From Eledone cirrhosa (taxonomy: Eukaryota), in NCBI GenBank assembly GCA_964016885.1, contig OZ024765.1:23436001-23500000 (forward strand): a DNA stretch of 64,000 nucleotides, read 5' to 3'. This document shows, piece after piece, positions 17,911-61,405 of the stretch. The position numbers and the translations under genes are program-made. Numbering within the stretch: the first letter of the stretch is position 1; the number at the start of each line of letters is the position of its first letter. The notes under the pieces were generated by a model. It was not told the origin of the DNA, ran no database searches, and worked only from the letters and a program-made list of their open reading frames with translations.

Positions 17911-17979
17911 ATACTTTATTATATATATTTCAGAGGCACTGTGTTGTTTTTTTCAGTACGTCCTCATCAGACAAAATAT
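17911..17979 (-). ncRNA. Minimal type-I hammerhead ribozyme in a roughly 360-bp TA-flanked element (17767-18125)
   Basis: Minus: AUAUUUUGU-CUGAUGA-GGACGUACUG/loop/CAGUGCCUCU-GAAA-UAUAUA-UA^AUAAAGUAU. Stem I is 9 bp, stem II is 10 bp with one mismatch, stem III is palindromic. Confidence 0.8.
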
Positions 17980-18145
17980 ATGATTTGATATATGACATAC
18001 CGCTACGGTCTTGATCACACAATTCAAGTATTGTACCTTGGAGTAAACAAACCAACCTGCGTACTTTGTCAAGTGCTCCAATCTGCATACTGAGGTGTCG
18101 GTAAATAACCAACATATACTCAAAATATATATATATAAATATATA

Positions 18146-19445
18146 CTAGCTGGCCCGTCCCTCTGGTGCCGGGCTAGGTGTACCGGCATTTTATCTTTTC
18201 ATAAATCCCCCTACACTCCAGTGCAAAGATACCGCATGCCCTCTCAAGTCAGCGAGGGGGTGGGGTTTAACGTGCTCTGATGTTGGGTTTGAACAGTTTT
18301 TAGGATTCCCCAGTTCAGCAGCCAGTACATTAAAGAAAATTGATAGTTACAACAATAAAGGCTGAACAGAGACCACATTTTTTAACAAACAATAATTTGT
18401 ACAACCATAATGGAAATTCCAAGTAACATAAAATATTTAAATTACATTGTTGGAGCCTCAGAGTATACAATATTTTCTGTTTGGCCCTTCAAAGCAAAGT
18501 TGAAGAGATTGTTTGGCGAGCTCACCCTAGAGCATCCTACATACAATTGACCATGGGAGAATCACTGATTTTGTAGGTTGTCTCGCAGAGAAGCTCTGTA
18601 GACATTGACCTCTGGACACTCCTGTCAGGAGCAGGTAAGCTGTAGTGACTTAGAGGCCGACCACCAATCTCCAGGACTCTGTTTTCAAGACAAATGAGCG
18701 CCTCATTGAAAACGACATTGTATGTTATGTTTGGATTGTGTCTGCGTGTGCGGTGGAGGATGTCCTCACCAAGACTTTCGCGGTGGTTGTTCCACAGTGC
18801 GAGAGGGTCGGCGATATCGCAGTTGTGCAGCATAATAGCAAAAGGTGTTCGCAGCTGAGAAGGGACTTTAGCTATTTAGCAGGGTGAGGTGTCAATGGCT
18901 GTCATCATGTAACATACCACGCATCTGGCAAGCCTAACAGTAAGTGGAACATTGATGGCCATTGATGGTTCTCAGATCTTGGAAAGACTGTGGTCCTCTA
19001 ACCTCGAACAGTAACAATGACGATAAGCCGTCTGTGCTTTCGTGAAATAAATAGGTTTTTGTTTTTGTGTATGCAAACATATCTGTACACGAATATATAT
19101 ATTAAAATAACAGATTAAAGAATCGCTGCTTTCACCCTTAAAGGGATCTTCTGAAACTAAAAAAATCAGTCTGTGAACGCAGAAGTAAATATTTTGAAAA
19201 ACGTTATCTAATGCAGACAGCCAGACATACAGACTAAGAAAAAGAGGGGAATGTTGTGCGACGTCCGTCATAAGTAAAAGTGTTGACATTTGAAATTTTA
19301 AAGAAATGAATATTTAAATAATGTCGTTAATCTTTTAACAAAATTCAGCAGACAAAAATACCCTCACTTTTTAACTTGGAAAAAGTGACATCTATGGAGC
19401 AAATTTGGTGTTGTTTGGTGCAGTCGTTTGGTAGAAAGTTTGTTA
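18146..19445 (-). mobile_element. Internally deleted Helitron
   Basis: Minus strand RepHel remnants (DPLALWNNHRESLGEDIL..NEALICLE; FSHGQLYVGCSRV..NIVYSEA). 3' hairpin gcccg..cgggc followed by CTAG|T at 18146. 5' boundary approximate. Confidence 0.88.
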
Positions 19446-19469
19446 CTTACATATGGCTGTCAGCTTTAT

Positions 19470-19810
19470 AGTATCATCATCATCATCGTTTAACGTCCAT
19501 GTTTCATGCTTGCATGGGTTTGGATGGGAGTTTTCCCACTTGAGGCAAGAGTGGTTGTCATTGCTCGCATAGGACTGTCTGGCGGGTTTTCTACAGCTGG
19601 ATGCCCTTCCTAACACCAACCACATTTACAGTGTGGGGTTGGGAGGTTTTTACCGTGTTGCCTACATGGCCACATTACAGCGTGGACTGTGTGTTTCTTG
19701 TCGTGACACCTACACGACCTCATTTGTTTCGGCCTGGATGTTGTGGTACCAACATAACTTTACATTGAAAGGGGCCGTGTGGATGGGGTGGGGGTGGTGG
19801 GACGGGTGTG
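19470..19810 (-). mobile_element. RTE 3' UTR fragment with (GAT)n tail
   Basis: Homologous to 47455-47790. Confidence 0.75.
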
Positions 19811-19846
19811 TATTTATATATATATATATATATATATATATATATA

Positions 19847-20457
19847 TGGTGGCTGCTAACTCGTTTTCGAGTACGGCCACTACTTTATATCCATATAGGA
19901 GAACCCCTACCGATGCGCTGAACGAGTGTGACTTTTTAGTCCAGCCAGCGACTTGAAAGCTCTGGTACAAACACTACACTTGTGACAAATATTGACACAT
20001 AGTGCTGGGCCCATGGTACCCTGTGACGACAAGTGCAGAGAGATCTCCAGATATAAAGCAATGCCTGTGCCGTGAAGCTTTTATAGTGAGCAAAGGCACT
20101 GCACAAAGCCAGTCCCACTCTCTTAACCAAGATGATATTTACCAAAAAGAAGAACAAGTCAACATCATAGGATACCATCAGAGTTGCAGGTGTTATATCA
20201 GAGTTTTCCTTCTCCTAGAATTCTGCCTTGACAAAGGCTAAAGGGTCATCTCTCCCGGTGATTTTGGATGGCCATTGACTCTTAAGAGCTCCTTTGCCCT
20301 TTGACAGGTCTTGTTTTTAGTCCTGCAGGATGTCCAAAGTCACCCTGCTCACCAAGAAACCTTGGTGGGGTTGCCAGTTTAGTCGCCAACGACCCGACCA
20401 TGGGTCAGGTTGTACTGGGATACATGTTACCAGTAGCACCAACTGGTGACCTGACAT
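19847..20457 (-). mobile_element. Roughly 610-bp non-coding RTE-derived (bipartite) non-autonomous element, copy 1
   Basis: Three copies (19847, 49400, 51394), all flanked by TA tracts. Contains ctaggagaaggaaaactctg (RTE 5'-UTR-like) and ends gtggccgtactcgaaaacgagttggcagccacc(AT)n, resembling the ZnF-RTE 3' end. Confidence 0.75.
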
Positions 20458-20644
20458 AATATATATCTATATATACAACACATATATACAATCAAATGGT
20501 GTTTACAGCATTTGATAGTTTACGATTGTTTCATCCAGATATAATCAATGGAGGTATAGGTTATAGATATGAAAGGCCTTGATACATAAATTGCCATGGT
20601 TATTAATTATAGCAAAATATTAGAGCAAGAAAATCAATTAAAAT

Positions 20645-59490: not shown

Positions 59491-59616
59491 ATACGCACAT
59501 CTACTGAGTTATACACACAACTACTGAGTTACACACACATCTACTGAGTTACACACACATCTACTGAGTTACACACACATCTACTGAGTTATACACACAT
59601 CTACTGAGTTATATAC
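59491..59616. repeat. 20-bp minisatellite (acacacacatctactgagtt), about 6 copies
   Basis: Exact 20-nt period. Confidence 0.92.
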
Positions 59617-60027
59617 ACATCTACTCATAAATATTTATAAATAGACACATTATACAAAATAATTATTATGTACAACCACATCTATAAATGATTGAGGAAG
59701 AGCTGGTGAAACACTATAGCAATATGTGTGTTGCACCCCTTTTGGTTTTTACCGGCTACATAGCCTATCCGTATTCTTATATTACGAGTGTATATATCAG
59801 ATGTTGAGGGGTAATATCTTGTCTATTATGTATAATGTATGTATGTATATATACAATATATATATACACATATATATATGCATATATACATGAATACATC
59901 TATATATATATATACACATATATTTATGTATACATAATTATATATATATAAAGTATATATATATATATATTTTAGGTATGAATATAGTCTCATTAATATA
60001 TATATATAATATAATATAATTATTTAT

Positions 60028-60176
60028 ACTTTTGGCACAAGGCCAGCAATTATCCCAGTGCATTACTGGTACTTTATTTTATCGACCCCGTAAGGATGAA
60101 AGGCAAAGTTAACCTCAGCGGGATTTGAACTCAGAATGGCAAGGGCCGTAACTCTATGCGTCAAAGCATGGCGTCC
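60028..60176 (-). mobile_element. SINE family A, head truncated
   Basis: Reverse complement of the 5692-5880 body. Confidence 0.85.
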
Positions 60177-60243
60177 TGTTATTATATTATATATAATATA
60201 ATAACAGGAAGCTGGACTTGTGTAAATCCTTGAAAGGTTTATT

Positions 60244-60301
60244 ATACTATGATCATTTCAATGACCGGGTTCCGTATGAATCCGGTGATATCATCAGGTA
60301 T
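60244..60301 (-). ncRNA. Type-I hammerhead ribozyme (left arm, intact core)
   Basis: Minus: AUAC-CUGAUGA-UAUCACCGGAUUC auacg GAACCCGGUCAUU-GAAA-UGAUCA-UA^GUAU; palindromic AUGAUCAU stem III. Confidence 0.8.
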
Positions 60302-61347
60302 TCGAAATAAAATAAATGAATGTAACAGATAAAATCCATGGGGCTGAAAATCATAGACCCGAGGACGACCGACCATCTAGCATCTTCCACTTTAGTTGGT
60401 CACCCTCGAGTGCTGGGCTATTCGGTCTACTTAAGGCTATCTGGTGAGGGGGCGAAAGCTTATAATGTGGTAACATCCCGGTCAAAGAGAAAAAAAAGAC
60501 AGAAAGAAAGAAGAAAAGTCAGCGTTAATGTCATGCTACAATCAGGCTAGGAATTGCCGCGAAAAATGTTATTCTAAAGAACCTATATCTTAACAGAGGT
60601 ATACATAGTGGGCATCTACATGGTATAATGTGTGAACAGAAAACTGGAATGTTAAATTTTTGTTTAGATTCATAGGATGAAATTAGAAAAATTAAATTAA
60701 AGATTAAAATTATAAAATTAAAAATTAAACAGTTTAAAAAAGCTGTTTGACTGCTAAACAAGGACTTAATCTTTACTCTATATACCACCCTGAAAACTTA
60801 TCGAGGATCTCTATAATACACTTAAAATTTTTTCATAAAAGACTCTCTGTAAATTCTTTAACTAAATCTCGCAACCCAAACCATACATTTTTTTTAAAAC
60901 TGTTTAATTTTTAATTTTCAAATTTTTTTAAATTTTTAAATTTTATAATTTAAATCTTTAATTTAATTTTTCTAATTTCATCCTATAAATCTAAACAAAA
61001 ATTTAACGTTCCAGTTTTCTGTTCACACATTATACCATGCAGATGCCCACTATATATACCTCTGTTATAATATAGGTTCTTTAGAATAACATTTTTCGCG
61101 GCAATTCCTAGCCTGATTGTAGCATGACATTTCTTCTTTCTTTCTGACTATTTTTTCTCTTTGACCGGGATGTTAGTAGCACATTATAAGCTTTCGCCCC
61201 CTCACCAGATAGCCTTAAGTAGACCGAATAGCCCAGCACTTGAGGGCGACCAACTAAAGTGGCAAATGTTAGATGGTCGGTCGTCCTCGGGTCTATGATT
61301 TTCAGCCCCATGGATTTTACCTGTTACATTCATTTATTATATTTCGA

Positions 61348-61405
61348 ATACTTGATGATATCACCGGATTCGTACGGAACCCGGTCATTGAAATGATCAT
61401 AGTAT
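61348..61405 (+). ncRNA. Hammerhead ribozyme (right arm, C3-to-U core change)
   Basis: AUAC-UUGAUGA-...-GAAA-UGAUCA-UA^GUAU. Confidence 0.65.

Follow-up and report, generated by a model that had tools for sequence, protein, structure and literature searches.

The eight hammerhead motifs in the window, the whole stretch of 64,000 nucleotides analyzed here, probably represent 3' ends (pseudo-LTRs) from Penelope-like retrotransposons (PLEs) of six families, present as short 5'-truncated inserts in TA microsatellites. Truncated PLE tail ends are the likely source because the inserts lie at TA microsatellites and one motif stands behind a broken Penelope-type endonuclease gene. Hammerheads in PLE ends have already been described across animals, and the window is a dense example of this known phenomenon.

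The sequence-only reading had listed eight hammerhead motifs by start coordinates, which correspond to the low end of stem I in each motif, and all eight were located there (Table 1). When the type-I core (CUGANGA, GAAA, UH and three stems, open at stem I) was checked, six of the eight were intact and two carried one core change, C3->U in 61352 and G12->A in 25436, in agreement with the mutated status given earlier to 61348(+) and 25405(-); the first pair of stem I in 25436 is also broken, as judged by eye. All eight combine this core with stems that pair, and self-cleavage is a prediction from these features. A paired-stem descriptor, which was drafted after the motifs had been seen, found the 6 intact loci compared with a mean of 0.02 in 200 block-wise dinucleotide shuffles (0 loci in 196 shuffles and 1 in 4). 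The pattern CUGANGA-N8-36-GAAA gave 9 matches compared with 1.83 expected, a number reached in 0 of 100 shuffles; two of the nine are unpaired and inside LINE-type coding remnants, and two have one core in common. A scan with Rfam gave 0 hammerhead matches at the gathering score in the window, no motif reaching the threshold, and microsatellite hairpins dominated among the 150 of 389 matches listed at E <= 10. When three motifs (49176, A2 and B1) were scanned singly, only 49176 was matched (HH9, 17.1 bits vs a cut-off of 52), and A2 and B1 gave no hammerhead match. This lack of a threshold match in Rfam and the frequency of AUAUAUAU in the window could suggest chance matches within AT-rich repeats, but the probability of this is practically negligible, and we count as its refutation the 6 loci against 0.02 expected, the covariation between families A1, A2 and B, and a structure-compatible variant within A2. 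Half-cores without stems, one at 47106(+) and two (15451, 37014) inside coding remnants of LINE type, were rejected, and so was a hammerhead-like AUGAAGA...GGGAAUGUUU in another repeat, with the core altered in every one of 4 copies and no Rfam match.

Table 1. Hammerhead motifs, their units and related fragments in the window. C3 is the position of the core nucleotide C3; cleavage sites are predicted.
Feature	Position	Strand	C3	Details
Hammerhead A1, intact	17909..17981	-	17970	stem I 11 bp; stem II G.U, 2 bp, C.C, 6 bp; stem III AUAUAUAU; predicted cut after A17920
A1 unit	17771..18039	-		3' tail with ACTCC (+65) and GTTGAGTGCT (+83); runs into (TA)n
A2 tail-only fragment	18040..18126	+		88% to 58024-58110; head-to-head with A1; ends in (TA)n
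Family B tail-only fragment	23590..23682	-		89% to 61501-61611; (TA)n at end
PLE ORF 3' remnant	24138..24635	+		CX4CxxC linker and GIY-YIG endonuclease; one internal stop
Hammerhead P, intact core	24819..24861	+	24823	extra nucleotide after A9; G10.1-C11.1; stem III AGAACU, imperfect
Hammerhead C, copy 1, G12->A	25405..25440	-	25436	unit end 25320, in (TA)n
Hammerhead C, copy 2, intact minimal	33180..33215	-	33211	CUGAUGA-A-GGA..UUC-GAA-ACGU-U; unit 33095-33325 between (TA)n
Hammerhead D, intact	49140..49182	-	49176	stem I 6 bp; U.U at base of 4-bp stem II; stem III ACGCGU; unit 49012-49250, (TA)n on both sides
Hammerhead A2, intact	57908..57962	+	57913	stem I 5 bp; stem II G.U, 2 bp, C.C, 7 bp; stem III AUAUAUAU
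A2 unit	57803..58110	+		between (TA)n; 5'-truncated copy of high-copy family; optional tail 58015-58110
Family B left arm (B1)	60187..60740	-	60297	intact hammerhead 60244-60301: stem II U.U, 2 bp, C.C, 5 bp; stem III AUGAUCAU; tail absent
Family B right arm (B2)	60915..61590	+	61352	92% inverted copy up to 61462; hammerhead 61348-61405 with C3->U; tail 61462-61590 runs into (TA)n

The motifs were assigned to six families because 25436 and 33211 (93% alike), as well as 60297 and 61352 (opposite arms of one 550-bp inverted repeat), are each copies of one family. The stems, which had been described as unrelated in sequence, are therefore not all so. Similarly, the palindromic stem III ascribed to most motifs is present in A1, A2, B, D and C but not in 24823, of which the stem III is non-palindromic with 4 of 6 pairs formed as a dimer. 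For C the proposed AACGUU was corrected to ACGU, because AACGUU takes in A14 and the cleavage nucleotide and the in-register stem III of 33211 and 25436 is ACGU. Family C fits the published minimal hammerhead consensus CUGANGAH-G..C-GAAA-C-G-U-H.

The insertion anatomy of these motifs has several features in common with PLEs. First, all eight motifs are in short inserts (unit sizes of 227-550 bp) in or beside TA microsatellites. The 3' ends of six go straight into (TA)n, which refines the earlier view of non-coding, (TA)n-bounded units for most motifs; 60297 ends in an AT-rich patch next to a SINE-like repeat, and 24823, which adjoins another repeat, departs from that view in lying behind an endonuclease ORF remnant. 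Second, copies within families C, A2 and B have a common 3' end, and the 5' ends are variable among copies, down to tail-only fragments. Copies that agree in their 3' end at (TA)n and differ in the 5' one, inverted pairs joined head-to-head, and a tail that may be present at one end are all found here, are expected of PLEs, and point to 5'-truncated PLE ends. Partial tandem copies forming two direct pseudo-LTRs around an ORF would also be expected of PLEs; no direct pair is present in the window, as can be anticipated because the copies are truncated. The spacing to the optional tail is 61-65 nt in A1, A2 and B, and in family B the tail is on one arm only. For A2, 9 contigs of run X1 and 1 of run X5 stop at 58014, into (TA)n, and the sequence extends 5' of 57803 in all four runs searched. 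The whole 3' regions of A1, A2 and B gave no significant alignment to one another, their kinship being based on short motifs and spacing, and on folding, 7 regions were no better than shuffles (best z -1.75).

The direct link to a PLE gene comes from the endonuclease remnant near 24823, a finding absent from the sequence-only reading. Its 5' side is cut off by SINE-like repeats, and hammerhead P starts about 190 nt downstream of its ORF stop. The remnant matches Pfam GIY-YIG (E 1.7e-4) and has 1746 relatives at E <= 0.001, the best of which is a 50% identical Octopus bimaculoides protein; long relatives have RT motifs and a C-terminal endonuclease with a cysteine linker, and the cysteines of the remnant's linker, CIDKKCITC, are conserved in them. 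According to Craig et al. 2021 (PMC8557442), a CX2-5CxxC linker before a C-terminal endonuclease marks Neptune/Nematis PLEs, and family P has such a linker; the likeness extends to the C-terminal GIY-YIG domain and the CCHH residues. By linker and endonuclease layout, the remnant is probably of Neptune/Nematis type, the RT of this copy being absent. The layout canonical for EN+ PLEs, in which a C-terminal GIY-YIG with the CCHH motif is followed by a hammerhead-bearing 3' end, was found in family P only. When 154 proteins (the remnant and relatives) were compared with the window, no match was found elsewhere, and no RT or endonuclease ORF was matched within the window beside A1, A2, B, C or D, of which the copies are short; the arms and spacer of B likewise gave no PLE protein match. 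A word-index search of the remnant against longer proteins confirmed 0 of 117 candidates, and one protein searched in viral contigs for related PLE loci gave 0 loci. The earlier proposal of several PLE families is thus borne out directly for P, and for the other five by insertion anatomy.

From known PLE biology, we suppose that the element's GIY-YIG enzyme would nick AT-rich DNA, and that reverse transcription would begin downstream of the ribozyme, either about 57 nt past the cut site or at the tail end, and would usually end early to leave 230-550-bp pieces flanked by microsatellite on both sides. Each ribozyme is predicted to cut mainly when dimerized via its stem III palindrome, either within a tandem precursor RNA or with aid from the element's protein, so that the lone copies in the window would mostly be inert passengers with no role for zinc-finger genes. 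The "ZNF cluster" noted earlier consists of two C2H2 array ORFs (9701-11194 and 34070-35434), and five of the eight motifs share the strand of both. Retention of the ribozymes to cut or regulate transcripts of these neighboring genes is nevertheless very improbable, since five of eight is no strand bias, the motifs sit in ordinary repeat copies, two of the eight have lost a core base, and the window is crowded with other repeats. Against the PLE reading itself stand the ORF link in one of six families only, the tails of A1, A2 and B, which at 85-130 nt exceed the 30-40 nt reported for PLEs (PMC8557442), and the report that one PLE hammerhead was dispensable for insertion in vitro (PMC11167929).

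The lack of an adjacent ORF in A1, A2, B, C and D also allows another origin, in which some or all of these five families arose from pseudo-LTRs as non-autonomous elements, either SINE-like units or dispersed monomers of a retrozyme, and were copied in trans by PLE protein, perhaps via circular RNA. Units of 227-550 bp would suit such elements, and A2 is very abundant, with 3433 contigs in run X1 and a summed depth (not copy number) of about 1e6 at the ribozyme vs 1-2e3 in the flank 58173-58262. Moreover, the loose ends of A2 add just 13-77 nt (median) of 5' sequence, the extra 5' sequence in X5 and X8 is an inverted repeat of the unit's start, and retrozymes are reported to derive from pseudo-LTRs with many solo monomers (bioRxiv 10.64898/2026.07.22.740005). 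However, tandem copies are absent from the window, the 5' ends differ so far that some fragments consist of the tail only, an ORF is present in family P, and no 3'-to-5' end joint is present among the A2 joints listed, which is a weak test with such short contigs; we therefore consider this origin unlikely. Retrozymes, which had also been proposed earlier, are defined by head-to-tail repeats (PMC7229834; bioRxiv 2026.07.22.740005), and the label is not supported here because none of the motifs in the window is in such a repeat. Animal non-LTR retrozymes resemble the window units in size (a few hundred bases), in being non-coding, in carrying a type-I hammerhead and in their kinship to pseudo-LTRs, and U.U at the helix II base is known from axolotl. 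In contrast to the head-to-tail arrangement and circular RNA of retrozymes, the window units occur singly or as head-to-head pairs and vary at the 5' end, and none of the runs listed as containing 57803-61470 is an RNA run.

Close published systems exist for these putative truncated PLE ends. Minimal and palindromic type-I hammerheads in pseudo-LTRs of metazoan PLEs were described by Cervera and De la Pena 2014 (PMC4209133), and as in the window, these combine the CUGANGA/GAAA/UH core with a short stem III palindrome, belong to numerous divergent families within one genome, stand mostly alone in truncated elements, and also occur as opposite-strand pairs 100-700 bp apart. Families C and P also have their extra nucleotide after A9 and the pairing of G10.1 with a pyrimidine, whereas in A1, A2 and B the unpaired extra nucleotide is missing and a C.C mismatch occupies the fourth position of a long stem II. 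This C.C is absent from all 56 rows of Fig. S3 in that study, which include no cephalopod; one sea-urchin row has C.A there, and helix II of D. virilis is bulged. The C.C is likewise absent from the 34 rows of File S2 in PMC8557442. According to PMC8557442, the hammerheads of Hydra-clade PLEs have a basal U.U or G.U in stem II and a long, nearly palindromic stem III, and the elements target (TA)n, so that D, A1, A2 and B resemble them in all three respects; the only hammerhead given in File S2 for an Octopus PLE, that of Hydra-1_oBim, differs from all six families. The inverted layout of the B pair with a tail at one end is as described in Fig. 2 of the same paper, and inverted 5'-truncated copies with a one-end tail are common to both. 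As to the earlier suggestion that the families may be uncatalogued, 10 of their motifs were compared with its supplement, without Repbase or Dfam, and were absent from it except for one chance coding-sequence match. The Poseidon element PAc of the green anole (PMC11167929) also has an AT-rich target and two RT start points bounding an optional tail after the hammerhead; its tail of 30-40 nt overlaps the ORF start, whereas no ORF start is evident in the window tails. The window tails are genomic signs that this two-start-site model reaches tails of about 100 nt.

The predicted ribozymes of A1, A2 and B share a basal G.U or U.U in stem II, the C.C mismatch, an 8-nt palindromic stem III and a downstream tail. 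When the structure drawn from A1, A2, B1 and B2 was applied to these same four sequences, 56 of 56 cells paired and 10 of 14 pairs were changed on both sides, which was matched in 0 of 500 shuffles, and slid controls were 17-52% paired. Together with the G.U/G-C variant in A2, these compensatory changes support the stems; the test covered A1, A2, B and the A2 variants, D and P being single copies. Across the 3433 contigs of A2 in run X1, no core, C.C or stem III position varied at >= 8%, and the stem II base was G-C instead of G.U in 39% of depth. This constancy is moderate, as 2 of 55 ribozyme positions vary vs 20 of 242 outside (Fisher p 0.19), and p = 0.019 is obtained only if two changes, one in the loop and the other from G.U to G-C, are deemed harmless. 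A model built from A1, A2 and B found no additional copy in the window. Their pattern also occurred in 116 metagenome (58 of 64 parts) and 9 viral stretches, and these were rejected as chance matches because stem I and stem II were both paired in 0 of 127 matches and none of the 125 loci matched PLE proteins. Judging from these sequences, one lineage with a common ribozyme variant has probably diverged into the three families A1, A2 and B. It is possible, although doubtful, that they form an undescribed Penelope-type lineage with its own hammerhead variant, common in this animal and found in related samples as well; C.C would then make a contact with a protein or within the tertiary fold, and dimerization would be coded by the stem III palindromes, with A1 and A2 mutually activating and B insulated. 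The conserved, covarying C.C variant escapes Rfam, and with a stem II of 26-32 nt it exceeds the 7-17-nt spacer of the core search in PMC8557442, so that such ribozymes may be undercounted.

Computed stem III closure as a monomer was +2.9 to +5.2 kcal/mol for A1, A2, B1 and D, and their self-duplexes were at -3.2 to -7.5. The sequence-only reading had supposed that stem III palindromes could limit dimers to their own family; computed cross-pairing was poor between most family pairs, but the idea fails for 17970 and 57913, which both have AUAUAUAU and pair at 8 of 8 positions. Any two differing palindromes cross-pair poorly, and no selection for partner choice is needed. With two families having the same palindrome and a third having a different one of equal length, the window is a natural test set for partner choice via stem III.

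When all CUGANGA cores in the window (n = 27) were inspected and a paired-stem descriptor was applied in a second scan, six intact type-I hammerheads were obtained by the descriptor, against a mean of 0.02 and a maximum of 1 in 200 shuffles. The sequence-only reading had placed its motifs correctly to within 2 bases, its coordinates being the low ends of stem I. Rfam returned no match for the window at the gathering score; of three motifs scanned singly, D alone matched a hammerhead, and weakly. The motifs are real and of an ordinary class: the families are new, but the kind is known. 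C conforms to the minimal hammerhead consensus in the literature. P does so too, except that its extra nucleotide is G and its palindrome is imperfect, and D has the U.U form described for Hydra-clade elements. An octopus hammerhead of a Penelope-like element (PLE), Hydra-1_oBim, is on record in the available text of PMC8557442, and 235 Rfam hammerhead matches are given for the giant squid genome in that of PMC6962438; no cephalopod study of these motifs was found in the literature searched.

Hammerheads and tail-only fragments in the window (position of C3 for hammerheads; a tail is the optional stretch 3' of the ribozyme)
Feature	Position	Strand	Remark
Hammerhead A1	17970	-	intact, paired-stem descriptor
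Tail-only fragment, family A2	18040-18126
Tail-only fragment, family B	23590-23682
Hammerhead P	24823	+	intact, paired-stem descriptor
Hammerhead C, second copy	25436	-	G12->A; recognised by eye
Hammerhead C	33211	-	intact, paired-stem descriptor
Hammerhead D	49176	-	intact, paired-stem descriptor
Hammerhead A2	57913	+	intact, paired-stem descriptor
Hammerhead B1	60297	-	intact, paired-stem descriptor
Hammerhead B2	61352	+	C3->U; descriptor with one core change tolerated

Self-comparison joined the two C copies into one family (93% over 193 bp, with a common 3' end and unlike 5' parts) and B1 and B2 as the arms of one inverted repeat (60187-60740 and 60915-61462, 92%), and the motifs therefore form six families. 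The sequence-only reading had called the stems unrelated in sequence, which does not hold for these two pairs. No head-to-tail repeat holding any motif was found in the self-comparison or among 150 of the 169 rows of a separate scan. Using the predicted cut sites as reference, (TA)n was reached 89-190 nt downstream by six of the eight motifs, and (TA)4 or longer lies within 200 nt downstream of 20% of random window positions as background. The tail-less B1 arm and B2 cease to match at roughly the offset of the short end of A2 (57 nt past the cut). At 17771-18126, A1 (minus strand) is joined head-to-head with the A2 tail-only piece, with (TA)n tracts at both sides; this fusion is possibly a template switch between two families, or one inserted at the end of the other. 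PLE terminal repeats can contain introns, and at 60915-61010 (+), on their 5' side, the B arms consist of a T-rich tract with terminal TTCCAG that resembles an intron 3' end.

A direct connection to a mobile element was obtained at P. The sequence-only reading had recognised this motif but overlooked a reading frame at 24138-24635, with one internal stop, which ends about 190 nt upstream. The frame contains a GIY-YIG domain (Pfam E 1.7e-4, slightly below its cut-off) and has 1746 relatives, the closest being a named Octopus bimaculoides protein with 50% identity. Long relatives carry reverse-transcriptase motifs, then a CX4CxxC linker and this endonuclease at the end, and Pfam assigned a reverse transcriptase in only one of the eight scanned. 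In the available text of PMC8557442, a linker of this type with a C-terminal endonuclease is the hallmark of Neptune and Nematis elements, and the linker is tied to (TA)n targeting. Because a GIY-YIG frame with a Neptune/Nematis-type linker ends upstream, P can be directly assigned, at the level of sequence, as the 3' end of a PLE. Of 154 such proteins compared with the window, none matched elsewhere than at 24138-24635.

A1, A2 and B share a stem II variant, in which a basal G.U or U.U is followed by two pairs, a C.C mismatch and then 5-7 pairs; their stem III is a palindrome of 8 nt, and their cut-site base is A. A pattern of this form, derived from these same motifs, gave three matches in the window and none in 100 shuffles. 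When A1, A2, B1 and B2 were aligned under a structure drawn from the same four rows (three independent families), 56/56 cells paired, with two-sided changes in 10 of 14 pairs, whereas slid controls showed 17-52% pairing. ACTCC lies 65, 62 and 61 nt past the cut site in A1, A2 and B2, respectively, and falls within that range for 0.4% of window positions. It is followed by GTYRAGTRCT, which occurs five times in the window against 0.79 expected, all five in 3' ends of these families. The 3' regions cannot be aligned over their full length, so the apparent kinship of A1, A2 and B is inferred from motifs and spacing. PMC4209133 Fig. S3 (56 rows) and PMC8557442 File S2 (34 rows) show no example of the C.C form, and helix II length is described as variable in nature in the available parts of PMC6155905 and PMC13725137. 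A C.C mismatch in hammerhead stem II was not found in the literature searched, whose scope ended short of Repbase, Dfam and Luense et al., the likeliest place for such forms. Metagenome and viral scans for the variant yielded no true relative. The C.C form is possibly an undescribed structural variant.

According to the available text of PMC8557442, most PLE inserts are 5'-truncated and many lie head-to-head, one end bearing a tail, and (TA)n is the preferred target. For a Poseidon element, PMC11167929 describes, in its available part, reverse transcription from two internal points delimiting the tail, an AT-rich target, and a hammerhead which cleaves only with protein present and is dispensable for insertion in vitro. 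The units in the window are probably reverse-transcription products begun at the short or long end and then halted early, within the microsatellite target. Stem III is predicted to form between two molecules, because closure as a monomer is costly (+2.9 to +5.2 kcal/mol computed for A1, A2, B1 and D) or impossible (C), and computed self-duplexes are favourable (-1.7 to -7.5 kcal/mol), with the exception of P (+2.4 kcal/mol). If so, lone copies would likely be inert; minimal hammerheads are described in the available text of PMC4209133 as cleaving weakly, and as dimers. It had also been proposed that stem III limits dimer partners to the same family. In register, each palindrome is computed to pair fully only with itself, A with B reaches 5/8 pairs (+5.3 kcal/mol), and palindromes of unequal length have no in-register pairing, so that limitation is possible for most pairs; however, A1 and A2 pair at 8/8, and it is therefore wrong as a general rule. 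The failure of different palindromes to pair requires no selection, and partner choice through hammerhead stem III was not found in the literature searched.

The A2 unit was compared with all contigs of four sequencing runs (X1, X5, X7 and X8, four organism labels) of 17, using window 57795-58310 as reference at 80% likeness. Matching contigs numbered 3433, 34, 7 and 1, respectively; X1 possibly comes from the same species or sample as the window. The summed depth, which is not copy number, peaked at about 1e6 over the ribozyme and was 1-2e3 in the flank (58173-58262), which indicates that A2 is an abundant family. Contigs in all four runs continue 5' of 57803, and thus the window copy is truncated. 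At least nine contigs in X1 and at least one in X5 end at 58014, 57 nt past the cut site and directly before ACTCC, and then enter (TA)n. In X1, 22 positions varied at 8% or more, 20/242 outside and 2/55 inside the ribozyme (Fisher p 0.19 for all changes, 0.019 for structure-breaking changes). Inside, one change affects a loop base, and the other, U11.1->C (39%), converts G.U to canonical G-C; no variant at 8% or more was listed in the core, C.C or stem III. Among the joints listed, two kinds of 5' junction were seen, an inverted repeat of the start of the unit (X5 and X8) and another, common extension (X1 and X7).

The window is animal DNA with a G+C content of 37.5%, with abundant (TA)n and remnants of LINE-type and LTR retrotransposons, and two C2H2 zinc-finger array ORFs; zinc-finger genes are clustered in octopus genomes. 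In view of the Octopus bimaculoides relative of the endonuclease frame, the host is probably an octopus, although two other searches, with the zinc-finger and reverse-transcriptase proteins, brought up no cephalopod name. A near-unbroken (TA)n/(CATA)n microsatellite of about 7.8 kb (49972-57802, about 12% of the window) is interrupted by a duplicated block. A 614-aa open frame at 225-2069 (+) shows, by eye, RNase H-/integrase-like motifs of LTR retrotransposon pol. A 113-bp inverted repeat (61699-61811 and 62425-62537, 97%) around about 610 bp resembles a small DNA-transposon derivative. The repeat at 62604-63652, with copies at 2910-3749, 22251-23483 and 25012-25257 (inverted), has partial tandem and inverted copies, internal (TA)n and a PLE-like layout; its hammerhead-like stretch has an altered core, and no ribozyme was accepted. 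A 180-bp unit flanked by (TA)n at 47136-47316 (-) starts with a possible 3' half hammerhead (47305-47294, GAA ACACGUGU C), as though truncated within the ribozyme; this is not significant alone because five such halves occur in the window against 1.39 expected, two of them from family B. A SINE-like 157-bp repeat at 60020-60176 has at least seven copies (84-96%), others lying near 5720, 7507, 8922, 22496, 23747 and 23950, and copies adjoin the B1 short end and the endonuclease remnant at its 5' break.
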